64,000 bases of DNA from Candidatus Omnitrophota bacterium (GCA_043798375.1 JAZDOS010000006.1:9523-73522); one strand, 5' to 3'; shown: positions 2,713-14,117, numbered from the stretch's first letter. The notes: a model not told the origin generated them from the letters alone. Translations and numbers: made by a program.

Positions 2713-2847
2713 ACTACCCCCCTTGTGGTTTTGCCAAGCTATAGGTTTACTTGAGATAATTATAAATGTATTAATAAAAAATAGCAATCAGATTTTTCGC
2801 TGTAACCTATTTGAGACATATGTTATAATACGGCTTCAACGCAAAGC

Positions 2848-2888
2848 TGGCGGGGTAGCTCAGTCTGGCAGAGCAGTCGGCTCATACC
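2848..2888 (+). repeat. 41-nt 5' fragment of the tRNA(CAU) gene, a direct repeat of 10209..10249 (att-type island boundary); a TATAAT box lies about 17 nt upstream
   Basis: Exact identity tggcggggtagctcagtctggcagagcagtcggctcatacc at both sites. Identity ends inside the anticodon loop. Confidence 0.85.
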
Positions 2889-3072
2889 AAACCTTCGGGT
2901 TTCCGACGAGGTAATTTCAAAATTTTGCCAAATTTCACAATTCCTCATAATAGTTCTGTAATGCCATTCTCCTTTCGTTGTCTATAATTTTACCATATAT
3001 TGCCGTCGGAAGCCAGTCAAATGTGGAAATTAAAAAAACAAAAAATATTGGTTTTCCGACGGAAAAGGGCTT

Positions 3073-3101
3073 GACTTCTTGCCGTAGATATGATATACTT
3101 G
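3073..3101 (+). promoter_or_regulatory. Sigma-70-like promoter TTGACT-N17-TATACT for the island XRE operon
   Basis: gggcTTGACTtcttgccgtagatatgaTATACTtg read directly from the sequence. Confidence 0.5.
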
Positions 3102-3185
3102 TTTTTGTAAGATAAAAACGCCGCAAAAATTTCGGGTGAAACAAACCAACGCCGTCGGCGGGCGAAAAATATAAACCCCGATATA

Positions 3186-3199
3186 GAACGTAAGTTCTG
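3186..3199 (+). promoter_or_regulatory. Perfect palindrome AGAACGTAAGTTCT between the promoter and the XRE start; candidate operator
   Basis: 5-bp arms with a 4-nt spacer, located in the 5' UTR of the XRE gene. Confidence 0.35.
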
Positions 3200-3242
3200 T
3201 GTCGGGGTCGTTTTATTTTATACCAGAAAAGGAGGCTTGAAA

Positions 3243-3434
3243 ATGAACCGATTAAGAGAAGTAAGAAAGACAAGGGGATTAACGCAGTATAATTTGGCGA
3301 AATTGGCAGGCACTTATCAAACAAGGGTATGGCAGTGGGAACACAGCCATTATATACCACGCAAATCACAGAAAGAAGCTTTAGCAATAGCCTTAAAAAC
3401 TACCCTAACGGATATATTTCCCGATGAGCAGTAA
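3243..3434 (+). CDS. XRE-family (Cro/CI-type) HTH transcriptional regulator
   Basis: MNRLREVRKTRGLTQYNLAKLAGTYQTRVWQWE is a classic HTH_3 pattern. GGAGG lies 7 nt upstream of the ATG at 3243; the ORF-table start at 3237 is a TTG. Confidence 0.75.
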   Translation: MNRLREVRKTRGLTQYNLAKLAGTYQTRVWQWEHSHYIPRKSQKEALAIALKTTLTDIFPDEQ

Positions 3435-3654
3435 GACCTACGCTATAAGCGATTTTTACCTCTCTGCGTATCTTAAGGCAAAGGGGCTAAAACTACTTAG
3501 CACGGAAAAAGAAGGACGGCGAACCACATTCGTTTTTGAGGACACGGAAGAACGGCGAGCATTAGTATTGGCATTTTATAACAACGGCGAGGTTTCGGTA
3601 AATGCTTTTAAAAACGCAATTCAAGACCTGAAGGCGATAATCTATAACCTGTAA
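3424..3654 (+). CDS. DUF5659-like small protein of mobile elements
   Basis: 76 aa, SDFYLSAYLKAKGLKLL...RRTTFVFEDTEERRALVLAFYNNGEVSVNAFKNAIQDLKAIIYN matches the DUF5659 pattern. Confidence 0.5.
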   Translation: MSSKTYAISDFYLSAYLKAKGLKLLSTEKEGRRTTFVFEDTEERRALVLAFYNNGEVSVNAFKNAIQDLKAIIYNL

Positions 3655-3675
3655 AATTAGGAGACAAATGCAAAG

Positions 3676-4836
3676 ATGAATAGTCAAATATTGAATAGAG
3701 ATATTAGCCATGTAGAGGAAAGTTTTAAAAAATATCTGCTTTTAAAAGATACTATTGTCATTAGAGTTGTTCTGGCTACCATATTCGCAAATAGGCTTGA
3801 AGGCGACCCACTATGGCTGTTAATAGTCGCACCGCCCTCCTCGGCAAAAACGGAGATTATTAACTCGTTGAATGGACTACCAGAAATATTTCCGCTATCA
3901 AGCCTAACCGCTCATACATTAGTAAGCGGCATGATTACTAACGAGGATGGCAAAAAAGATGACAAGGATAAAAGCCTTATACTTCAACTTGATGGGAAAA
4001 TTCTGGCATTGAAGGATTTTACCTCGGTATTATCAATGCACAGAGAGCAGAGGGCCGAAATTCTATCCCAATTAAGAGAAATATATGACGGAGCATATAT
4101 AAAACGTTTTGGCACAGGTCAGGTAACGGACTGGAAAGGCAAGATAGGTATTATCGCTGGGGTTACGCCTATAATAGATAATCACAATAGCGTTTCCCAG
4201 ATGTTAGGGGAAAGATTTATTCAATTTCGGATGGAATCACCAGACCTTGTAGAAATGGCTCTTAGGGGCATAGACAACACTGGTAGGGAATGTGGGACAA
4301 GGCAACAGCTAATAGAGATGGTTAGAGATTTTGCAATAAATATACCTATGCCAACAAATGAAATCACCATACCCTCTGCAATTAGAAATAAAATAGCACA
4401 CTTAGCGGCTTTTTGCGTTGTTGCAAGAAGTGGGGTTTTACGGGACGGGCGTAGCCGTGAAATCATATATACTCCTGCACCCGAAGCCCCGCCAAGGTTA
4501 GCGAAACAATTTGTCAAGTTAGGTCAAGGATTGGCAGTTATTAGTAAACGAAGCAGTATATCTACGGAAGACTATGCAGTTATTTATAGAATTGGATTAG
4601 ACATAATTCTTAAACAACGTAGAGATATAATATTTCTGCTTGAGGCGTGCCCTAAATCCGTAAAGGACATAGCAAGAATAACGAGGTATCCTAATCCTAC
4701 TGTCTATAAAATTCTTGAGGACTTACGAAGCCTATCATTGATAGACTCAAGCGACGAACAGGCGTGGTCGCTAACGGATTCGGCAACGATGTCGTTGGGT
4801 GAAATTAAACCGTTTTCCGAAACGTCGGGGGTATAA
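3676..4836 (+). CDS. P-loop NTPase-like protein with C-terminal winged helix; putative island replication/initiator-type protein
   Basis: Degenerate Walker A LLIVAPPSSAKTE, Walker B-like KILALKDF, and C-terminal wHTH KSVKDIARITRYPNPTVYKILEDL. Sits in the rep position of an integrative element. Confidence 0.4.
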   Translation: MNSQILNRDISHVEESFKKYLLLKDTIVIRVVLATIFANRLEGDPLWLLIVAPPSSAKTEIINSLNGLPEIFPLSSLTAHTLVSGMITNEDGKKDDKDKSLILQLDGKILALKDFTSVLSMHREQRAEILSQLREIYDGAYIKRFGTGQVTDWKGKIGIIAGVTPIIDNHNSVSQMLGERFIQFRMESPDLVEMALRGIDNTGRECGTRQQLIEMVRDFAINIPMPTNEITIPSAIRNKIAHLAAFCVVARSGVLRDGRSREIIYTPAPEAPPRLAKQFVKLGQGLAVISKRSSISTEDYAVIYRIGLDIILKQRRDIIFLLEACPKSVKDIARITRYPNPTVYKILEDLRSLSLIDSSDEQAWSLTDSATMSLGEIKPFSETSGV

Positions 4837-4924
4837 GTGGTAACTTAAAATTTCAATTATTTAATTATAATATTTTAATTTTATAGATATATCCGACTTT
4901 TCGGAAAAATAGAAAGGTGGGCGT

Positions 4925-5542
4925 GTGAATACGGAAAGTAACGAAAACATACGAAATACGGAAATTTTGTCAGTGAACCAAAAGACGGCCATAACTTTAC
5001 TTTGCAACGGCCTAAGCAAGGCTGAAGTTGCGAGAAGGTTAGGCATAGAACGTGAAACAGTTTCCAAGTGGTGCAATCACGATCCCGATTTTCAACAGGC
5101 GTTAGAAAATAGGCGTAAAGAAATATGGGGCGAGAACTCATTAAGCAAGGAAGCGGAGTTAATAAGACAAGTTAAAGATACAGACTTGTTGACCCTTGAG
5201 GGCATAGAGGCCAGACTCAGGCTTGTTGACGCCCTTCTCCTAACGGATGTTATTGAACGTGATGATGGCAGAACCAAAACCATACAACGCCTTCAGATGA
5301 ATGTTGAAGCAGTGCGAAGCTATGTGGAGACTGTTCTTGCGGGAAAATCTGTGAATGATAGCGTTAACATTATTGTTAACAGGTATAAATTTTTGCTTCT
5401 CTCCTCATTGCAGAACATTCTAAAAGATGTCGCAGGAGAAGATAAGGCAACGCAAATACTGGTGTTCTTAGCACAAAAAATGGAACGCATAGAAAACGTG
5501 GAGAATTCGGCGAATGGACAGGACGAAAAACCTGAAAACTAA
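4925..5542 (+). CDS. HTH-domain protein, terminase-small-subunit-like or regulatory
   Basis: N-terminal LSVNQKTAITLLCNGLSKAEVARRLGIERETVSKW helix-turn-helix, followed by a coiled-coil-like remainder. Confidence 0.35.
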   Translation: MNTESNENIRNTEILSVNQKTAITLLCNGLSKAEVARRLGIERETVSKWCNHDPDFQQALENRRKEIWGENSLSKEAELIRQVKDTDLLTLEGIEARLRLVDALLLTDVIERDDGRTKTIQRLQMNVEAVRSYVETVLAGKSVNDSVNIIVNRYKFLLLSSLQNILKDVAGEDKATQILVFLAQKMERIENVENSANGQDEKPEN

Positions 5543-5900
5543 AACTATTATTGAATGTTTGCTCAGGTTAGAGGAGCTTACAAAACTATCTGTGGCAATT
5601 CATATAGCCTTTAAAAAATTTATTATATGGGAGGCTCAAAAGCGCATGGGCAATATAAAAGCCGAGCTTTTAACCGCCGAAGAACGGCGTTTTATAGGGG
5701 AATACTCCGCAAAATATATGCCTGCCATACGACTAAATCTTGAGCAGAATATAAGCGACTGGATAATCTGCCACGAGCAAAAACGGCAAACACTGAAAAC
5801 GCTAAGAGAAATATTTCCCGATGATATTCTATTGTTGTATATACGAGCCTCCCACATAAATGACCTAAAATCTATCCTACCTATACCGCTAAACGCCTAA
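5514..5900 (+). CDS. hypothetical protein (island)
   Basis: 128-aa ORF in an operon with its neighbours; no recognisable motif. Confidence 0.4.
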   Translation: MDRTKNLKTKTIIECLLRLEELTKLSVAIHIAFKKFIIWEAQKRMGNIKAELLTAEERRFIGEYSAKYMPAIRLNLEQNISDWIICHEQKRQTLKTLREIFPDDILLLYIRASHINDLKSILPIPLNA

Positions 5901-6127
5901 TCGTTCTCTCCCTTGTCTTCTCGGTTATAATGTGATAGTCTATACAGCAAGAAGTAGTAGTTAGCTCTTTAAAAGGAAGTGTTTTTAACGAGGACTTTCC
6001 TCAGTTTTATCAATCAACGTCTAAGGAGGGAGGCCCTTGCCTTATGGGCAAGCGGTCTTTCGCTTTAACTTAGACGTTGGGCGGAGGAATTAAAAATGCT
6101 TGCCCACTTTATTTTATAAGCACATAG

Positions 6128-6580
6128 GTGATAATTATGTTTTTCAAGCCAAAATGGTATAAAAAATTACCATTACATCTCAGGCCCGATAACAATAAAG
6201 TCGAAAACCTTGAGTCATTACGAAGAAAATTGGGTTTTCCCGATGAAATTTTTTTTATGGGCATAGTAAATTCCCGATGGACTGTAATACAGGCGCAAAA
6301 AGCAACTCTTGAAACGTTAAAAATAGATAAACCTGAAGCTACTGAAGCAGAATTGTGGGAAGGCGTTCTTTTTACAAGGTTAAAAATGAAGCTTATGATG
6401 CCAACGCCAGACGATCTACCAAGAGATGAAATTTTACATAGAATGGAAAATGTCAGTAATATAGTTGCCAATATCCATAGTTTTGATGAGCTGTTAAATT
6501 ATATCATTTCTATGGACGAAAAAAATCTTATGGATGATGACCCAACACAAAGACAAATTGACGAAGCGTTATTCGGATAG
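6128..6580 (+). CDS. hypothetical protein (island)
   Basis: 150-aa ORF ending 10 nt upstream of the Mrr_N-like gene. Confidence 0.4.
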   Translation: MIIMFFKPKWYKKLPLHLRPDNNKVENLESLRRKLGFPDEIFFMGIVNSRWTVIQAQKATLETLKIDKPEATEAELWEGVLFTRLKMKLMMPTPDDLPRDEILHRMENVSNIVANIHSFDELLNYIISMDEKNLMDDDPTQRQIDEALFG

Positions 6581-6589
6581 CATTTATCT

Positions 6590-6928
6590 ATGAATAGTGA
6601 TGGTATATCTTCTGAAATATTGTATCAGTTTTTAATACTTAAAACCCTCGTTGATATTGGTGGCTCAGCAAGGAGAGATAGAGTTTTAAATCATATAAAA
6701 CTACATTATAATAATTTCTTATCAAAAAAAGACTTAGAAGATTACGAAAGCGATAATGGAGAGCGTTGGAAAAATCACGCAAGTTTTGCTCGACAACATT
6801 TAATCTATGTTGGGTATTTAGCCAGAAACTCGCCTTATGGTATCTGGGAAATTACAGATGTTGGCAGGAGCAAGTGTGCGGAGTGGATTAAGCTTTTAAA
6901 ACAAGATTTAACACATTCTGGACTCTAA
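6590..6928 (+). CDS. standalone Mrr_N-like winged-helix protein (N-terminal DNA-binding domain of Mrr-type restriction enzymes, with no nuclease domain)
   Basis: ILYQFLILKTLVDIGGSARRDRVLNHI ... GERWKNHASFARQHLIYVGYLARNSPYGIWEITDVGRS parallels the E. coli Mrr N-terminus (YKNRAGWAHDRLKRAGL...GKWCLTPAG). Confidence 0.5.
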   Translation: MNSDGISSEILYQFLILKTLVDIGGSARRDRVLNHIKLHYNNFLSKKDLEDYESDNGERWKNHASFARQHLIYVGYLARNSPYGIWEITDVGRSKCAEWIKLLKQDLTHSGL

Positions 6929-7075
6929 TACAGGACGGGCGTGGTTAAGCTAAAATCTATCACCATAATGCTCCGCCTATTGATGTATGGGTCTTGACGT
7001 TTGTTCAAAGTTTGAAGATAGTTTACAGGGCTTATACCGAAAGAAAATTAATGGAGGCGCTATGCGAGAAATGAT

Positions 7076-7528
7076 ATGAACAGGCTTTTTATCACAATAT
7101 TATGCTTCATTTTCTTAGCGGGCTGTGCCACATCTTCAGGATATTATACAGACCCTAATAGCAAGGGTTATAAAGAGCCTCATTATGAAGGCTCCTGTTT
7201 AAAATGTAATAGGGTTTTTAGGTTTAGCAGGGCTGTATATGATGCAAGCTCAACACGCTTTGGGGCGTGCCCATTTTGCGGAATGGAGCAAAATTTAGAA
7301 ATGGCAAATCAGCGTTATTTGTATGACCAGCAAAATCAGAGTGGTTCATCAGATAATATATTAGATATGGTAAATGCTTTCAAGGGAACATCAATGCTTC
7401 CTTACCAAGTCAATTCAAACATCGAAAGCAACGTTACTAAATCTCGACAGGTTACAGTGTTTGGGCCGAGCAGAAAAAATATTTACAATAGAAATGGTCA
7501 ACAGGTCGGATACATTGATGGTCAATAA
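7076..7528 (+). CDS. lipoprotein with CxxC...CxxC zinc-ribbon
   Basis: Signal peptide with lipobox FLAGC; CLKCN and CPFCG motifs. Confidence 0.55.
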   Translation: MNRLFITILCFIFLAGCATSSGYYTDPNSKGYKEPHYEGSCLKCNRVFRFSRAVYDASSTRFGACPFCGMEQNLEMANQRYLYDQQNQSGSSDNILDMVNAFKGTSMLPYQVNSNIESNVTKSRQVTVFGPSRKNIYNRNGQQVGYIDGQ

Positions 7529-7547
7529 AATTTTTTGAGGTAAAAAT

Positions 7548-7991
7548 ATGAAATTCATACTGATTGGCTTAACGGCAATATTGTGCTTTCACAGTCCAGC
7601 ATATGCGTGGACGGAGTATAAAAATATCCGTTATGTCGACTTAGACGGCGATTCGGCTGATGAGATTGTCATTGAATCAAAACACGGGGCAGGCTATGGG
7701 CATTATATCGAGGACGTGCGAATATTCAAGGATGCGTATCCTGCGTTAGAGTTGATGTTCACGCAAAGGACGCTCGATAGCTACTCCGTTGATGAGTATA
7801 ATTACGATGTCGTATCTATTGTTGAATTTTCTGAACCAAACCAGAAAAGTGGTATACGGGATATAATGACTAAAACAGAGAAAAAGTATTATAAGGATAA
7901 CGAGCATAAGGTCTTTGACAGAACCGAAGATTTAGGCACTAAGATATTCAAGTGGGACGGAGTGAAATTTGGTGAGGCTAATGTTCAGTGA
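7548..7991 (+). CDS. secreted hypothetical protein
   Basis: N-terminal signal peptide MKFILIGLTAILCFHSPAYA. Confidence 0.5.
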   Translation: MKFILIGLTAILCFHSPAYAWTEYKNIRYVDLDGDSADEIVIESKHGAGYGHYIEDVRIFKDAYPALELMFTQRTLDSYSVDEYNYDVVSIVEFSEPNQKSGIRDIMTKTEKKYYKDNEHKVFDRTEDLGTKIFKWDGVKFGEANVQ

Positions 7992-8125
7992 TAAAATAAA
8001 CGGCGTTGCCGAAAAAATAAACACCCCTGTCTAAAATACTCCCCATTATACCTTGTCATGGTTTGTCATACCTTGCTTATCTCACCTGTTCTCAATAGGT
8101 TATAACTGTTAAATATAGGCATAGA

Positions 8126-8141
8126 TGGCACAGTTATTGCT
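8126..8141 (+). promoter_or_regulatory. Sigma-54 (RpoN) -24/-12 promoter TGGCACagttaTTGCT about 45 nt upstream of the LamG/PEP-CTERM gene
   Basis: Matches TGGCACG-N4-TTGCW with GG/GC spacing conserved. Confidence 0.55.
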
Positions 8142-8184
8142 TATATCTATTATGAGAAGTTATATCAAATAAGGGAGGTATGGC

Positions 8185-8991
8185 ATGAGACGTCTTATAG
8201 TGGCTTGCATATTTGCGTTGTTGATGGGCTGTCCGACTTTAGGGCATGCTGAAAATTATGCGTTGGATTTCGATGGAGTAGATGATTATGTTAGTGCTCC
8301 CGACAGTAATTCGTTGGACTTGACAAGTGGATTAACCATCGAGGCGTGGATTAATCCTCGCGAATATGCGAATGGCGCTAATGTGATAGCATCAAAATGG
8401 TATCCTAGCTCGTATATTTTCAAGCTACACAACGATGGAAGCGGAAAGTTGCGTATAGAATTATCTAAGGGTGGCTTCAATGACCTAGCTAATCTTAAAG
8501 GGAACACTGCGGTTTCACTTGACCAATGGACACATGTAGCTACGACCTTCAATGGGGCAGAAACAAAGCTTTTTGTTAATGGTAGTTTCGATGGCTCTCA
8601 GACTCAATCTGGTTCAATTGTTCCGAACTCAAAACCGTTTTATATTGGAAGTGTGGATGGTGGCGAAGTATTTCATGGATTGATTGATGAGGTTCGTATT
8701 TGGAATTATGCTCGGTCGCAACAGCAGTTACAGGATTATATGAATGGCCCGCTAACAGGTAATGAACAAGGCTTGATGGGCTATTGGAATTTTGATGAAG
8801 GCACGGGAAATACGCTCGGCGATTTAACGCAATTTGGGAATGATGGCCAGATATATGGTGCTCGATGGGTTTCGTCAGATAGCCCAGTAACTACGCCTGT
8901 CCCAGAGCCAACATCGCTAATGCTTCTTAGTATGGGTTTATTAGGAGCAGGAGTATTAAAGGCCAAAAGGCGAAATTTCAAAAAATCATAG
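8185..8991 (+). CDS. LamG-like (concanavalin A-like lectin/Laminin_G_3) secreted protein with C-terminal PEP-CTERM sorting signal
   Basis: Signal peptide; GLTIEAWINP...WTHVATTFNG...LFVNG...IDEVRIWN Laminin_G_3 pattern; C-terminal VPEPTSLMLLSMGLLGAGVLKAKRR has the PEP motif, a TM helix and a basic tail. Confidence 0.75.
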   Translation: MRRLIVACIFALLMGCPTLGHAENYALDFDGVDDYVSAPDSNSLDLTSGLTIEAWINPREYANGANVIASKWYPSSYIFKLHNDGSGKLRIELSKGGFNDLANLKGNTAVSLDQWTHVATTFNGAETKLFVNGSFDGSQTQSGSIVPNSKPFYIGSVDGGEVFHGLIDEVRIWNYARSQQQLQDYMNGPLTGNEQGLMGYWNFDEGTGNTLGDLTQFGNDGQIYGARWVSSDSPVTTPVPEPTSLMLLSMGLLGAGVLKAKRRNFKKS

Positions 8992-9083
8992 CGCATATTT
9001 GACAGCTCTAAGGTTATAATAACGGCCCGCCGTTGGGGGGGATGGCCCCCTTACTCGTTACCGATTTATCTTTTGTTATTCCC

Positions 9084-10046
9084 TCAAAACTTTAAACTAA
9101 GCGGATGAAACTTCTCAAGCGATTTCAGAAGCTCGCCTTCATCGTAGCCGATGTAACTCTTAACCGTAACGCTAATGTCGCTATGGCGCAATAACCTGCT
9201 AACGTCCACAATATTCAGCCCCTTTCGTAATAGCATCGTCGCAAAGCTTCGGCGTAAGAGGTGAGGCCGTAGCTTCTTACCAAAGCTGAGGTTATTATTT
9301 AACTCTCCAAACAGAAGTTGCAAGCCTCTCGTTCCGAAAGAGCCGTCGCCTCGCCTTTTATCCTGCCCGCTACGGTTGCTATCAACAAACAGATTATCAG
9401 TCTCACGCTTCAGGGTCATCCTTACCTGCAAGTAGTTCATCAATAGTTGCTTTAATGTGCTACAAATAGGCACTACTTCCTGTCGGCGTGTTTTGGTATG
9501 CATTAATCGTAGTGCGTTGTTGTTTAGGTCAATGTCCTTTATCTTGAGGTTGAGTGCCTCACTACGGCGTAACCCTGCAAATACAAAAACTCCCACAAGA
9601 GCAAGGTCTCGAAGATAGGCTATCCTATAACGTGGTTTCCGTCGGCTCATCATATATCGCATTAACTCCTTTACCTGCTTTTCGTCCAGTGCTTCGGGTA
9701 GTTTCTTCTCTACCTGCGGACGAATGACGTTGAGCATAGGGTCTTTACCTATGTATTCACGCCGAAGCAGGAATTTCGAGAACGCTTTTAACGCCTGCCA
9801 ATTGGTAAGGTTGGTGCGAGGAGTAATGCCACTTTTTAGGCGGTCAATAAGAAATTGCCTTATGTTCGTTTCGTTGAAGTCTTTTAACTGCGGTTCCTTG
9901 ATTTGTAGCCATTGACGAAGGTATGCGACGAATACCCGCATACTCATCCTATGCCATCTTAAAGTCGCTGGCCTTGATTGCCTTTCCCATTCATGCCACA
10001 ACATATACTCATTAAACACACTTTCCAATGTCTTCTCCATATACAT
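9084..10046 (-). CDS. int: tyrosine-type site-specific integrase (phage integrase family)
   Basis: Catalytic R (LRRSEALNL), HxxR (HLLRRSFATML) and H...Y (LLRHSDISVTVKSYIGYDE). Adjacent to the tRNA. Confidence 0.85.
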   Translation of the reverse strand: MYMEKTLESVFNEYMLWHEWERQSRPATLRWHRMSMRVFVAYLRQWLQIKEPQLKDFNETNIRQFLIDRLKSGITPRTNLTNWQALKAFSKFLLRREYIGKDPMLNVIRPQVEKKLPEALDEKQVKELMRYMMSRRKPRYRIAYLRDLALVGVFVFAGLRRSEALNLKIKDIDLNNNALRLMHTKTRRQEVVPICSTLKQLLMNYLQVRMTLKRETDNLFVDSNRSGQDKRRGDGSFGTRGLQLLFGELNNNLSFGKKLRPHLLRRSFATMLLRKGLNIVDVSRLLRHSDISVTVKSYIGYDEGELLKSLEKFHPLSLKF

Positions 10047-10209
10047 ATCGGCAAAACAGGGTTGCTAACAGAGGAAATTTGTGATATAATCGGCGTTACT
10101 TTGAAATGATTTACTGTTGTCGTCGAATAGTTGGGGCGTGATAACTGCTCGGTGAGATTTTGACTTTTAGCGGTTTTGTCGCAAGTCTTTTTACGTAACG
10201 AAGTTACGT

Positions 10210-10286
10210 GGCGGGGTAGCTCAGTCTGGCAGAGCAGTCGGCTCATACCCGGCGTGTCACTGGTTCAAATCCAGTCCCCGCTACCA
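10210..10286 (+). tRNA. tRNA with CAU anticodon (Met, initiator or Ile2-lysidine not distinguishable), 77 nt with encoded CCA
   Basis: Cloverleaf: acceptor GGCGGGG/CCCCGCU (G1-U72), D-arm GCUC/GAGC, anticodon stem GUCGG/CCGGC with loop CUCAUAC, T-arm ACUGG-UUCAAAU-CCAGU. Confidence 0.85.
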
Positions 10287-10411
10287 GTTCAGTTTACGCA
10301 GTGGAGAGTCGAACTGGATTTGAAGCCAAATTGCGCCGACGAATAGGAGGAAAAGTCCTCTGGACGGAAGCAATTTGGCCGGCCTGAAGCCCGCCTCTGG
10401 CGGGCGTAAGG

Positions 10412-10431
10412 AAATCCAGTCCCCGCTACCA
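10412..10431 (+). repeat. 20-nt copy of the tRNA 3' end (aaatccagtccccgctacca) 125 nt downstream of the tRNA; second att-like scar or tRNA-like minihelix remnant
   Basis: Exact match to the tRNA 3' terminus. Preceded by ggcgggc and the palindrome gcccgcctctggcgggc. Confidence 0.6.
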
Positions 10432-10494
10432 ACTTCAAAAAAAATGGGCGGCTCTTATATTATCTTTACAGCCGCCCTTAAATCGCGTGCTATT

Positions 10495-11036: not shown

Positions 11037-11828
11037 TCATTTCGCTTCGTGCATGCTCCCCGTTCTGTATCCGCAGAGATCGAGAGTGATGTAGGTAAAG
11101 CCGAGACTTTTCAATTTTCTTACGATCAAATCCCGCAGTTTCAGCGCCCTGCCGAAGTCGCTCTTAAAAACCTCGATCCTTGCGATATCTTTATGCAGGC
11201 GCACCCTGACTTGTTTTAACCCCAAGCGCCTCAAATAGGCCTCGGATTCCCCTATTTTTTTTAGATCCGATTTTTTAATCTCGCTGTTAAACGGGATTCG
11301 TGACGCGAGGCATGCGAATGAAGGCTTATCCCATGTCGAAAGCTTCAATCTTTTCGAGAATTTCCTGATATCATCCTTCGTCATTCGCGCCTCCAACAGC
11401 GGGCTTCGCACGCCCAGCTCCCGAGCGGCCTTACGGCCATGCCGCACATCCTTCAGGTCGTCGAAGTTTGTCCCGTCGAGGATGTAGTTAAACCCGCGCT
11501 TCCTTCTTATCCCGTCGAGTTTCTTGAACAGCTCCTTTTTGCAGTAGTAGCAACGGTTAACCGGATTGGATTTAAATCTCTTTAAATTCAACTCTTTGGT
11601 ATAGATAGTGATCTGTTTTGCACCGATCTTCTTTGCTAACCGCCTTGCCTCTTTGTATTCAGATAGCGGATATGTTACGGAACGAGCCGTAACGGCCAGC
11701 ACGTTCTGCCTGCCCAGCGTATCGACAGCTGTTTTAAGCAGAAACGTGCTATCTAACCCGCCTGAGTAAGCTATCACCACGCGTTTCAGACCCTTCAAGA
11801 TCGTCCTCAATTTATCACTCTTATTCAT
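11037..11828 (-). CDS. larE: PP-loop ATP pyrophosphatase, LarE-like (TIGR00268 family sulfur transferase)
   Basis: SGGLDS PP-loop plus PSFACLASR cysteine motif; start taken at MNKSDK rather than the ORF-table extension. Confidence 0.55.
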   Translation of the reverse strand: MNKSDKLRTILKGLKRVVIAYSGGLDSTFLLKTAVDTLGRQNVLAVTARSVTYPLSEYKEARRLAKKIGAKQITIYTKELNLKRFKSNPVNRCYYCKKELFKKLDGIRRKRGFNYILDGTNFDDLKDVRHGRKAARELGVRSPLLEARMTKDDIRKFSKRLKLSTWDKPSFACLASRIPFNSEIKKSDLKKIGESEAYLRRLGLKQVRVRLHKDIARIEVFKSDFGRALKLRDLIVRKLKSLGFTYITLDLCGYRTGSMHEAK

Positions 11829-11947
11829 CGCGTCTCCCAAGCAATAATTTTTTGATTTCTTCAAGAATGTGATGTGGCGATGTGGTGAGCTCAGGCGTCC
11901 TGAGCGAACCACTCGACACAGCACATTCGACTGGTGAAAACGAAAAA

Positions 11948-13042
11948 TTATTGCGCCGATTTAATCCATCCCCCACCTATCACAACGTCTTTATCGTAAA
12001 ATACGACCGCCTGCCCCGGTGTTGGAGCCGCCTGCGGTTCGTCAAAATCGACTCTGACGGAATCCGCGGCAATCTTCGTAACGAGCGCCTTCGCCTTCTT
12101 ATGATTATACCTTATCCTCGCCATCGCTTTAATCGGCTTCGATAAGCCCTCTATGGCGATCCAGTTCATCCTATCGGCGACAAGGCTCTTTTTCATCACT
12201 TCTTCCCTTGGCCCGGCGATCAGGCGGTTCTTTTCGATGTCGATCCCTGTAACGTAGAGAGGCTCTTTATGAGCTATTCCCAGCCCGCGGCGCTGCCCGA
12301 TCGTGTAAAAAGGCATCCCCTTATGGCGGCCCAGGACTTTCCCGTATTTATCGACAATATCACCCGCCCTTATCCCGGCTCCGGTCTTCTTCTCGATATA
12401 TTCCGCGTACTCCAGGTCCTGAACGAAACATATATCCTGACTTGAGACGGCGTTAAATGTTATTAGCTTCATCTTTTTCGCAAGCGCCCTTACCCGATCC
12501 TTAGTCAGGCTGCCCAGCGGAAAAACCGCGCGTTTTAACTGCTCCTGCGAAAGCCTGAAAAGAAAATAGGATTGGTCCTTTCGCCCGTCCTTACCTTCCT
12601 TCAATAAATACCTGCCGGATTTTTTATCTATGCCTATGTTCGCGTAATGGCCGGTGGCCACGGCCGATGCCCCGAGGCTGACGGCTTTTTCCAGAAGATG
12701 GCCGAATTTTATCTTTTCGTTACACACAACACAGGGGTTCGGCGTATTCCCCCTTAAATATTCCCAGCAGAAATAGTCGATCACCTCTTTTCTGAACTCT
12801 TCGCTGAAATCGACTACATAATAGGCTATGCCCAGGCCTTCCGCAACGGCTCTGGCCCTCGTCACGGCTTCGAGGTTGCAGCAGCTCCTGCCGGAACTCG
12901 ATCCGCATTCCTCTTTCGGCCACATCCTGAAGGTGAGGCCTATTACTTCGAACCCTTCTTTCTTCAATAGCGCCGCGGAGACAGACGAGTCTACGCCTCC
13001 GCTCATCGCTGCGACGATCCTCTTACTTTTTGGCCTTGCCAT
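11948..13042 (-). CDS. mnmA: tRNA-specific 2-thiouridylase MnmA
   Basis: AAMSGGVDSSVSAALLKKEGFEVIGLTFRMW and overall MnmA pattern. Confidence 0.85.
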   Translation of the reverse strand: MARPKSKRIVAAMSGGVDSSVSAALLKKEGFEVIGLTFRMWPKEECGSSSGRSCCNLEAVTRARAVAEGLGIAYYVVDFSEEFRKEVIDYFCWEYLRGNTPNPCVVCNEKIKFGHLLEKAVSLGASAVATGHYANIGIDKKSGRYLLKEGKDGRKDQSYFLFRLSQEQLKRAVFPLGSLTKDRVRALAKKMKLITFNAVSSQDICFVQDLEYAEYIEKKTGAGIRAGDIVDKYGKVLGRHKGMPFYTIGQRRGLGIAHKEPLYVTGIDIEKNRLIAGPREEVMKKSLVADRMNWIAIEGLSKPIKAMARIRYNHKKAKALVTKIAADSVRVDFDEPQAAPTPGQAVVFYDKDVVIGGGWIKSAQ

Positions 13043-14117
13043 ACTGCTCCTTAAATCCGCCTGCCATCCCGACTTTAAATTTATCTTTATCTTCCATTAT
13101 GATGAGCGCGTCCATCCCCTTCGCGTCCGCAATCTCCAATCCATGGCTGCCCAGCACACACAATGCGGTCGCAAACATATCGGCGCTCGTCGCGTCATCG
13201 GCCACTACGGTCGCGCTTGCAACGCCGTTATCGGCCGGCCTTCCGGTCCTGGGGTCTATTATATGAGGGTAACGTTTCCCGTTAAATAAAAAATATTTTT
13301 CGTAATCGCCGGCCGTATCGATGGCCCTGTCATTCAACTGGAGCGCCGCGAAAACCTTCTTCTTGTCCCTCGGGTGCTGAATACCGACCCGCCAGGGCTC
13401 TAACTCATCCTTCATTCCGAGGCAGTACGTATCCCCGCCGGAACTGACAAGCGCGTTCCGAACGCCGCATTCTTTCAGGACCGCAACGGCCCTGTCGGTT
13501 GCGTATCCTTTCGCGACACCGCCGAAATCGAGCGCCATTCCGTCTTTCTGAAACGTGATAGTGGTATTTAACCTGTCGAGTATGATATATCGCGACCCGA
13601 CCTTATCAAGCGCGGCCATTATCTCTTTTTTGGACGGCAGAACCATCTCCTTACCTGCCGCGCGCCATAGGTCGACGAGAGGCTTGACCGTAATATCGAA
13701 CGCGCCTTTCATATCTTCACCGCACGCGACCGAGCGTTCGATTAAGCCGAAGACCTCTTCCGTCGTCTTAACAGGCTCTCCCGCTTTTTTGCACCTGTTT
13801 ATACGCGACGCCTCGCTGTCGTCTTTAAAAACGCTGAATATGCCCTCTACGCGGGCAATCTCATTGAAAGCCTTGCCTACGGCCAGCCGGACGGTTTCGG
13901 CGTCCTGGCCGGCAGGTACCGGCGCCTGTATGCGGACGAACGTTCCCATCATCGGCCTTGTATCTTCGACCATCCGCGCCGCCTCTCGACAAAGGCCCGG
14001 GACGGCGTCCTTGTCAGGGCCGAAGGATGCCGCCGTTTCCTGTGCGGCCGAAGCCGGAAATACCGCAAATGAAATGATTAATAATACCGCGTAAAGAAAG
14101 CGGGGTTTTTTTATCAT
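13023..14117 (-). CDS. apbE: FAD:protein FMN transferase (ApbE family lipoprotein)
   Basis: Signal peptide; DFGGVAKGYATDR...SSGGD motifs. Confidence 0.8.
   Translation of the reverse strand: MIKKPRFLYAVLLIISFAVFPASAAQETAASFGPDKDAVPGLCREAARMVEDTRPMMGTFVRIQAPVPAGQDAETVRLAVGKAFNEIARVEGIFSVFKDDSEASRINRCKKAGEPVKTTEEVFGLIERSVACGEDMKGAFDITVKPLVDLWRAAGKEMVLPSKKEIMAALDKVGSRYIILDRLNTTITFQKDGMALDFGGVAKGYATDRAVAVLKECGVRNALVSSGGDTYCLGMKDELEPWRVGIQHPRDKKKVFAALQLNDRAIDTAGDYEKYFLFNGKRYPHIIDPRTGRPADNGVASATVVADDATSADMFATALCVLGSHGLEIADAKGMDALIIMEDKDKFKVGMAGGFKEQYGKAKK

Follow-up and report, generated by a model that had tools for sequence, protein, structure and literature searches.

A tRNA(CAU) gene and a copy of its 5' half bound an AT-rich island

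The subject of this analysis is a small island beside a tRNA(CAU) gene in a 64,000-nt stretch of a metagenome-assembled genome (MAG) of a Candidatus Omnitrophota bacterium (GCA_043798375.1, JAZDOS010000006.1:9523-73522), which as a whole is referred to here as the window. The sole tRNA gene of the window, reported by ARAGORN as tRNA(CAT), lies on the plus strand at 10210-10286, where the Rfam tRNA model scores 61 bits. The sequence TGGCGGGGTAGCTCAGTCTGGCAGAGCAGTCGGCTCATACC forms an exact 41-nt direct repeat with two copies only, at 2848-2888 and 10209-10249, and a third copy was not found in the window at up to three mismatches; the number of copies expected by chance is none. The repeat is made up of one nucleotide upstream of the gene followed by tRNA nucleotides 1-40, and it spans the 5' strand of the acceptor stem, the D arm, the 5' strand of the anticodon stem, the whole 7-nt loop CTCATAC and one further C. 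When the tRNA was compared with the window by BLAST, nucleotides 1-40 were recovered at 2849-2888 with 100% identity, as a 5' fragment situated 7361 nt upstream of the tRNA gene on the same strand.

An earlier note on this DNA had proposed that a 7.4-kb integrative island with 5'-half duplication lies here, bounded by a 41-nt repeat. The repeat is exactly where that note placed it and is not dispersed in the window, and the proposal as a whole is borne out by the repeat, the base composition, the integrase, seven related loci and the empty sites described below. A detail to be corrected is the point at which identity ends, which the note put inside the anticodon loop; identity instead ends at the 3' edge of the loop, after one further C, and in the relatives the identity block stops exactly at the last loop nucleotide.

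The DNA enclosed by the two copies is foreign in composition, as had been suspected from its AT-richness. The cargo (2889-9083) has a GC content of 0.395, compared with 0.506 +/- 0.012 in 190 other segments of 6.2 kb (z = -9.2), and its strand-symmetrised tetranucleotide distance of 0.0365 is about 2.8 times the maximum found elsewhere (0.0132). Codon usage is likewise atypical, with GC at third codon positions ranging from 0.27 to 0.46 in the island genes versus 0.55 to 0.64 in the flanking genes. The opposed orientation of the island genes, also part of the earlier description, holds throughout: outside the island, the minus strand carries every one of the 39 open reading frames (ORFs) of 200 aa or more, and plus-strand ORFs of this size are confined to the island cargo. 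The strand bias outside the island is unusually complete over 57 kb, and the GC skew is negative along the whole window.

A dedicated family of Xer-like tyrosine integrases

Adjoining the intact tRNA gene, as the earlier note had recognized, is a gene for a tyrosine integrase of 320 aa (9084-10046, minus strand) that is transcribed away from the tRNA. The protein is Xer-like with two domains; it matches Pfam Phage_integrase (3e-27) plus SAM_1, and phrog_1 (9e-41). The closest solved structure is that of XerD (1a0p, 1e-18), with the R, HxxR and H residues in register, and an alignment of the integrase family shows R160/R161, K185, H262, R265, H288 and Y298 to be invariant. In common with XerC, XerD and XerA, the integrase has a SAM-like core-binding domain and a catalytic domain, no arm-binding domain, and the conserved R, K, HxxR, H and Y, but it differs from them in being island-borne and in always standing beside a tRNA attachment site rather than a dif-type site. 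The curated NCBIfam equivalog cut-offs for the XerC and XerD chromosome-dimer resolvases are not reached (152.4 bits versus a XerC cut-off of 335.15, and 142.4 bits versus a XerD cut-off of 329.6), and the score is also below the NCBIfam cut-off for integron integrases.

Relatives of the integrase are few, and the best database matches come from Candidatus Omnitrophota. In a collection of 5.8 billion proteins there are only about ten with at least 51% identity, and the remainder are XerC/D-like proteins with at most 30% identity. Contigs encoding integrase homologues were fetched and searched with the tRNA sequence, and seven other Omnitrophota assemblies proved to have an integrase of this family at the corresponding tRNA(CAU) gene, without exception on the 5' side. 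The loci take two forms. In arrangement A, which is that of the window, the integrase gene lies about 140-170 nt upstream of the intact tRNA(CAU) gene and is divergent from it; this form occurs in Rifle MAG 45_24 (loci L001/L002, integrase 89% identical), in Rifle MAG 45_10 (L011, integrase 90%/83% identical and interrupted by a frameshift or stop), in Lac Pavin MAG_49_9 (L020) and in L005, whose integrase is 51% identical. The displaced tRNA fragment of L001 lies about 8.3 kb away, and a scaffold gap follows after 27 nt of the fragment. In arrangement B, found in L003, L004 and L006 (integrases 64-66% identical), the tRNA 5' half ends at nucleotide 39, and a co-directional integrase gene begins about 100 nt further on. 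L004 and L006 run from the 5' half, up to nucleotide 39, into island DNA with the family integrase. L003 is a 9985-nt unitig of a k = 31 assembly that starts at tRNA nucleotides 10-39 and ends with nucleotides 1-30; such ends are those expected of a de Bruijn unitig at this k if the island of L003 is bounded by a repeat of exactly nucleotides 1-39. Thus, eight independent assemblies agree that the element carries the 5' part of the tRNA, beginning with the mature 5' end and including the anticodon loop up to its last nucleotide.

Since the integrase gene can be on either side of one and the same core, divergent and upstream in the window, L001, L011, L020 and L005 but downstream and co-directional in L003, L004 and L006, the attachment site of the element (attP) and the integrase gene have been rearranged relative to each other within the family.

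Empty sites in related genomes

If the island is an insertion, related genomes should include some with a single tRNA(CAU) gene at the corresponding site, as the earlier note had predicted, and such genomes exist. A scan with tRNA nucleotides 10-39 against one genome per species of bacteria and archaea gave 25 matches, all in Omnitrophota MAGs and all in intact genes. An integrase adjoins the tRNA only in L011 and L020; in the other 23 the tRNA is intact and the stretch fetched contains no integrase. The conserved order of the flanking genes is ApbE, MnmA, LarE (TIGR00268), tRNA, and then GH3 and/or TilS, so that the undisturbed gene stands between LarE and GH3 or TilS. In L013, LarE, the tRNA and GH3 fall within about 220 nt with nothing between them, and L010 has the same order with longer spacers. 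L013, L010 and others are empty sites at the species-to-genus level.

The right-hand copy of the tRNA 5' half belongs to the element

The earlier note had left open which of the two 5' halves is native, having seen a TATAAT box ahead of the left-hand fragment. The box is there, within an extended -10-like sequence (TGTTATAAT, 2821-2829, plus strand) located 19 nt upstream of the fragment, but the ambiguity is removed by the spacer between the integrase gene and the intact tRNA gene. This 163-nt spacer (10047-10208, plus strand) is 84-87% identical in L001, L002, L011 and L020, loci in which the chromosomal flanks differ, and therefore the spacer and the right-hand 5' half belong to the element. 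Judged from this comparison, the left-hand fragment (2848-2888) is the displaced chromosomal half of the gene.

The spacer contains a promoter-like site, TTGCTA-17-TATAAT with TG, that was found by consensus scan at 10062-10090 and faces the tRNA. It is kept in L001, L011 and L020, and is not clearly present in L005, the most distant member of arrangement A. This site is the natural candidate for the promoter that such an element must supply for the tRNA. A hairpin in the spacer, ACGTAAC-GAA-GTTACGT, directly abuts the 5' end of the tRNA. On the opposite side of the island, the box at 2821-2829 is the presumed chromosomal tRNA promoter; ATGTTATAATAC is likewise found upstream of the outermost tRNA fragment in L001 and TGTTATAAT just upstream of the tRNA in L025. 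A consensus scan gave no full -35/-10 promoter at the box. The orphaned chromosomal promoter probably now reads into the left arm of the island.

That left arm (2889-3236, plus strand) corresponds to the P' side of attP, as indicated by its homology to the arm found after the core in L003, L004 and L006, and it is thus homologous between arrangements A and B. It carries an AAACC-TTCG-GGTTT hairpin and promoter-like sites. The motif CCGACG/CGTCGG is present in four copies in the 348 nt of the arm (2903, 3004, 3056 and 3153) versus 57 in the 64 kb on both strands, and it resembles the anticodon-stem arm AGTCGG. It is possible that these motifs are accessory binding sites.

The position of the crossover can be narrowed down from the extent of identity. 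Strand exchange needs identity across the overlap, which would confine the crossover to nucleotides 1-39. Within these, the likeliest overlap is the loop, since it is exactly here that the identity block stops and integrases are known to target the anticodon stem-loop. We infer that the 7-nt anticodon loop is most probably where the crossover takes place. The opposite edge of the block falls exactly on tRNA nucleotide 1, for which the best explanation is selection for the regeneration of a functional tRNA.

A probable small integrative element with a reversed tRNA attachment site

Taken together, these observations make it very probable that 2889-10249 is the integrated copy (7361 bp, with one repeat counted) of a small Omnitrophota integrative element whose attP carries the 5' half of a tRNA gene. 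In the circular form, attP would consist of the element's own copy of tRNA(CAU) nucleotides 1-39/40 behind the 163-nt spacer with its consensus promoter, and the Xer-like tyrosine integrase would recombine this site with the chromosomal tRNA(CAU) gene. On integration, the promoter and 5' half of the chromosomal gene (2849-2888) would be cut off from its 3' half, and the promoter and 5' half of the element would at the same time be joined to that 3' half to give the full-length gene at 10210-10286. The copy at 2848-2888 would accordingly be the core of the left attachment site (attL), formed by the displaced chromosomal fragment, and the copy at 10209-10249 the core of the right one (attR), where the element-borne 5' half meets the chromosomal 3' half in a reconstituted, intact tRNA(CAU) gene. 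Usually it is the 3' part of the gene that comes with the element, and the present arrangement would be the mirror image of this. Between its ends the element would carry a regulatory and replication module, comprising a Cro/CI-type helix-turn-helix (HTH) protein, a DUF5659 protein, an MCM-like helicase and a TerS-like HTH protein, plus a variable cargo of surface proteins. As it has no virion or conjugation genes, its transfer would depend on a helper phage, vesicles or transformation.

The earlier note had called insertion with duplication of the 5' half the less common geometry, and the Islander survey of Hudson, Lau and Williams (2015) supports this: 159 of its 3919 islands (about 4%) have 5' fragments versus 3760 with 3' fragments, and it counts 2083 anticodon-centred attP sites (PMC4383910). 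Islander looks for an intact tRNA gene and a cognate end fragment on the same replicon and in the same orientation, with a 5' fragment lying upstream, at a distance of 2-200 kb, and for a tyrosine integrase inside the interval that is not a Xer or integron integrase (PMC4383910). The island described here agrees with this definition in every point examined, namely fragment, orientation, integrase type, configuration and length. Like the 5'-fragment islands of that survey, it has an intact tRNA gene, an upstream 5' fragment in the same orientation and a tyrosine integrase between them, and the element supplies the 5' part. It differs from them in that its host phylum is Omnitrophota, its integrase family is apparently undescribed, and the integrase gene may lie on either side of the core within the family. 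Our literature search found no paper describing such elements in Omnitrophota.

The element is thus an uncommon but already documented kind of tRNA-targeting integration, and it does not overturn the current understanding of site-specific integration. Its interest is that of a clean, multi-genome example of the rare reversed geometry, in which the element must bring a promoter and part of a gene, in a candidate phylum whose mobile elements are almost unstudied. It offers a concrete attP/attB pair and a compact Xer-like integrase that are open to experiment, and it shows that an integrase gene can change sides within one family with no change of the core site. Specialists in mobile elements may find mild interest in the preference for the 5' side throughout the family, in the two positions taken by the integrase gene and in the inversion of the tRNA cassette described below.

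A class of tRNA-targeting tyrosine integrases with the anticodon loop as sublocation was reportedly defined by Williams in 2002, with the flanking dyad symmetry thought to provide the core sites and the 7-nt loop the overlap region. The island resembles this class in that the edge of its identity block coincides with the anticodon stem-loop, but the block extends from the loop back to the 5' end of the gene and not on to the 3' end. A further difference is that the element side lacks the stem 3' of the loop, having CAAAC, TGCCA or GGCCA where the gene has CCGGC.

Cargo of the island

The first genes of the island, all on the plus strand, appear to form its regulatory and replication module. 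They are preceded by a TTGACT-17-TATACT sequence with TG (3071-3099) and then by a 15-bp terminator-like hairpin with a T tract (3175-3208), and the region 3071-3208 may constitute a putative attenuator of the operon. The first gene (3237-3434) encodes a Cro/CI-type HTH regulator of 65 aa with matches to Pfam HTH_3 and HTH_31 and to PHROG transcriptional repressor families (8e-9). The next (3424-3654) encodes a small DUF5659 protein of 76 aa (PF18903, 1.8e-16) directly upstream of the helicase gene, and the corresponding gene holds the same position in the L001 island.

The helicase gene (3676-4836) encodes a protein of 386 aa, p386, that is predicted to combine an MCM-like AAA+ ATPase with a C-terminal winged helix. 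Searches against Pfam, PHROGs and NCBIfam, a phmmer search of the PDB and a PDB profile search gave no family match for the ATPase part; only the C-terminal winged HTH was matched, by Pfam HTH_5 and the PDB profile. An AlphaFold2 (AF2) model built from 25 homologues had a predicted local distance difference test (pLDDT) score of 89.8, and its top Foldseek matches in the PDB were MCM2-7 subunits and archaeal MCM (probability 1.0, query TM-score (TMq) 0.45-0.53). There are hundreds of homologues, many of which are fused to PrimPol/PriCT_1 or Toprim primase domains. On the strength of the model and these homologues, p386 is read as a putative replicative helicase or initiator of the element. MCM-like helicases occur in prophages and integrated elements, an example being the MCM of a Bacillus cereus prophage that is fused to a primase-polymerase. 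p386 shares with these the predicted MCM-type AAA+ fold and C-terminal winged helix, but it stands alone, with neither a primase domain nor an MCM N-terminal domain. An MCM-like helicase module following a small SpoVG-like gene is also found in other integrated elements, in L035 (3301-16618) and L036 (8603-15138), whose recombinases are different; the large serine recombinase of L035 appears to interrupt a Mg-chelatase/ComM-like gene.

Two conserved genes follow. The HTH protein p205 (205 aa, 4925-5542) resembles a terminase small subunit (TerS) weakly (phrog_7344, 6e-9), with further matches to Pfam Terminase_5 (9e-6) and CENP-B_N (1e-7), and p128 (128 aa, 5514-5900) is a conserved hypothetical protein for which Pfam, PHROG and NCBIfam scans gave no significant family match. 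Both are kept in the L001 island, with 74% (tblastn) and 57% amino acid identity, respectively. The integrase, the spacer, p205 and p128 are common to the islands of the window and L001 and other cargo differs, and in this sense the islands are mosaic.

The remainder of the plus-strand cargo (6128-8991) is variable and encodes five proteins: a hypothetical protein of 150 aa, an Mrr_N-domain protein (6590-6928; Pfam Mrr_N, 1.7e-10), a lipoprotein-like protein of 150 aa (7076-7528), a secreted protein of 147 aa (7548-7991) and a LamG/concanavalin-like protein with a PEP-CTERM sorting signal (8185-8991; Laminin_G_3 2e-34, PEP-CTERM 1e-5). None of the five had a match in any related island fetched (tblastn, E <= 1e-6), and PADLOC found no defence system in the cargo. 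Among phage functions, the PHROG scan, which covered the ten island proteins other than the PEP-CTERM protein and left six of the ten without a match, gave only the integrase, the repressor-type HTH protein and the weak TerS similarity, and no virion or lysis genes. Pfam and NCBIfam scans of the island ORFs revealed no relaxase, type IV secretion or coupling-protein domains. In its gene content the element therefore resembles an integrated plasmid or satellite, and not a prophage or an integrative and conjugative element.

Alternative explanations for the island

Several observations weigh against the integration reading or complicate it. The block from the 5' fragment to the tRNA (about 2746-10435) is inverted relative to the conserved order ApbE-MnmA-LarE-tRNA-(PilZ-GH3)-TilS; of 20 related loci, 19 have the tRNA in the same direction as the upstream LarE and the downstream GH3/TilS. 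Comparison with L018, L020, L010 and L013 indicates that the inverted block contains the promoter, the 5' fragment, the island, the tRNA and the trailer. The closest relative, Lac Pavin MAG_49_9, has these flanks too (85-87% nucleotide identity), joined there to a tRNA and integrase that keep the ancestral orientation. At least one extra rearrangement must thus have taken place at the locus. No inverted repeats above those of shuffled sequences were found at the ends of the block, and the leader-trailer inverted repeats of the relatives are absent at the breakpoints in the window. In L009 the tRNA cassette alone is inverted, which shows that flips of this cassette recur, and because both attachment sites lie inside the block, the inference of integration is unaffected by the inversion. 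Other adverse points are that promoter activity is predicted from consensus matches only, that no excisionase was recognized among the island proteins by Pfam or PHROG, and that neither a circular attP junction nor a same-species empty site was recovered among the genomes, metagenomes and viral contigs scanned. The integrase profile and the tRNA 30-mer gave no match in viral contigs, and a profile scan of JGI metagenomes led to three loci only, two of which duplicate loci already listed and the third of which is a distant relative with 28% identity. The interrupted integrase gene of L011 indicates that some family members are decaying. Finally, the source is a short-read MAG, in which a 41-nt repeat could let an assembler thread an episome into the chromosome.

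One possibility, then, is that the element is real but was an episome in the sampled population, and that the integrated path is a product of assembly. An element with its own MCM-like helicase module could replicate autonomously, and assemblies do break at the repeat: the scaffold of L001 has its gap exactly at the fragment, the Logan unitigs of L003 and L006 terminate within the repeat, and in L016/L026 the break falls at the tRNA's 5' end. Independent assemblies (L004 from ENA and the L001 scaffold) nevertheless give the same integrated arrangement, both tRNA halves of the window are on the plus strand as is consistent with one contiguous inverted block, and the final k of most assemblers exceeds 41 and would resolve the repeat; we regard an assembly origin as very unlikely. 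A purely local origin, in which a duplication or tRNA pseudogene arose without any mobile element and the AT-rich genes are a native variable region, has in its favour the other tRNA-derived scars at the locus and is otherwise a general possibility. It is extremely improbable, given that in several genomes the repeat is bounded by tRNA nucleotide 1 and by the end of the anticodon loop, that a dedicated integrase family is always present, that empty sites exist and that the composition is foreign.

The remaining alternatives accept an integrated element but differ over its state or its nature. The island may be a fixed remnant of an old integration that was inverted along with the tRNA cassette and has lost the ability to excise, as might be suspected from the inverted block, the lack of a recognized excisionase, the disrupted integrase of L011 and the frequency of scars at tRNA(CAU) in the phylum. 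Yet the two 41-nt copies do not differ, the integrase has an uninterrupted ORF and all its catalytic residues, the composition is not ameliorated at all, and an inversion containing both attachment sites leaves excision possible, and we think it unlikely that mobility has been lost. It has also to be considered whether the element is a phage satellite, similar to a phage-inducible chromosomal island (PICI), that is packaged by an Omnitrophota helper phage. An integrase, a Cro/CI-type regulator, a helicase, a protein with similarity to TerS (phrog_7344, 6e-9), small size and the absence of structural genes would all suit a satellite. The TerS similarity is weak, however, and coincides with matches to HTH families of generic and transposase type; capsid-remodelling functions and other hallmarks of satellites were not found among the island proteins, the integrase family and the tRNA 30-mer have no match in the viral contig collection, and typical PICIs are larger than 7.4 kb. 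A satellite identity seems unlikely, and the integrative element described above, whose present-day mobility is presumed, is the reading that we prefer.

Other features of the tRNA(CAU) locus

The end coordinate given in the earlier note, 10431, coincides with the end of a second repeat that the note did not describe, a copy of the last 20 nt of the tRNA. This 20-nt copy (10412-10431, equal to 10267-10286) lies 145 nt downstream of the original on the plus strand, and the feature as a whole (10287-10431) includes a 125-nt insert that folds stably (minimum free energy (MFE) -58.9 kcal/mol). The 145-nt unit matches no Rfam family and has no other copy in the window or in the fetched loci. An analogous 26-nt repeat of the tRNA 3' end surrounds a 94-nt insert in L027, and the two inserts are not homologous (alignment score 39, shuffle mean 39). 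Both are probably scars of separate, conventional 3'-end integrations and lie outside the 7.4-kb island. We also considered whether the intact tRNA and its trailer might be wholly element-borne, with 10412-10431 as the chromosomal remnant, and rejected this as less parsimonious because one conservative recombination cannot give junctions at both nucleotide 40 and nucleotide 58, and because related elements carry only nucleotides 1-39.

The identity of the tRNA may be that of either tRNA-Met or tRNA-Ile2. A G1-U72 pair, C11-G24 and the lack of GGG/CCC in the anticodon stem, read from the sequence, are features of the elongator type. The gene sits among genes for tRNA modification and sulfur transfer, with the N-terminus of TilS at 1-635 and LarE-type, MnmA and ApbE genes at 11037-14117, all on the minus strand, and in L001 and L011 TilS comes directly after the tRNA. 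This neighbourhood hints that the gene may encode tRNA-Ile2, the substrate of TilS, rather than tRNA-Met.

In many Omnitrophota (L030 at 1186-1420, L018, L020, L001, L010 and L022), complementary leader and trailer blocks, AAGGTCCTTCG...CTCAGGATCA and TGATCCTGAG...CGAAGGACCTT, flank the tRNA(CAU) gene. Their pairing encloses the cloverleaf in a long-range stem (in L030, MFE -106.9, z = -7.0) reminiscent of rRNA processing stems, and integration of an element separates the two halves of this stem. A different peculiarity of the leader is a copy of 13-14 nt of the tRNA 5' end, GGCGGGGTAGCTC, that precedes the tRNA or the 5' fragment in L001 (about 9000-9120), L004 (2592-2726), L009, L019 and L029. 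It is situated just downstream of the distal promoter and about 96 nt, start to start, before the tRNA or fragment, and the spacer of about 82 nt that follows it is homologous across the five species. This arrangement could have been inherited as an old scar left by a 5'-type element, or it could be a functional, conserved leader.

A more speculative idea, which we advance with considerable doubt, is that this mobile lineage shapes the expression and maturation of tRNA(CAU) in Omnitrophota, so that the gene has become a long-term dependant of the elements and does not merely tolerate them. If this were true, elements would have repeatedly replaced the promoter, the leader (one half of the processing stem) and the 5' half of the gene, and old element-derived upstream parts would have become fixed, the order of promoter, 13 nt of tRNA, 82 nt and tRNA in at least five species being a case in point. 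The tRNA cassette, with or without an island, would flip against an otherwise co-oriented chromosome, and the tRNA affected in this way may be essential and is possibly the TilS substrate tRNA-Ile2.

Two MAGs have further irregularities at the site. In MAG STD1_50, two contigs (L016/L026) overlap by the tRNA and 50 nt, and one of them starts exactly at tRNA nucleotide 1; such a branch of the assembly graph at the 5' end of the tRNA is as expected if the population is polymorphic for an element there. In MAG_49_9 the tRNA(CAU) gene is present twice, intact each time and with a different T stem, on separate contigs (L018, 111-187; L020, 5119-5196). The copy with the T stem CATAGG/CCTATC adjoins a coiled-coil gene, and the copy with CACTGG/CCAGTC adjoins the integrase and PilZ genes; a second copy of the tRNA leader, ending in GGC, is found directly before PilZ. 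The doubled tRNA and leader suggest that tandem or compound elements occupy the site in this genome.

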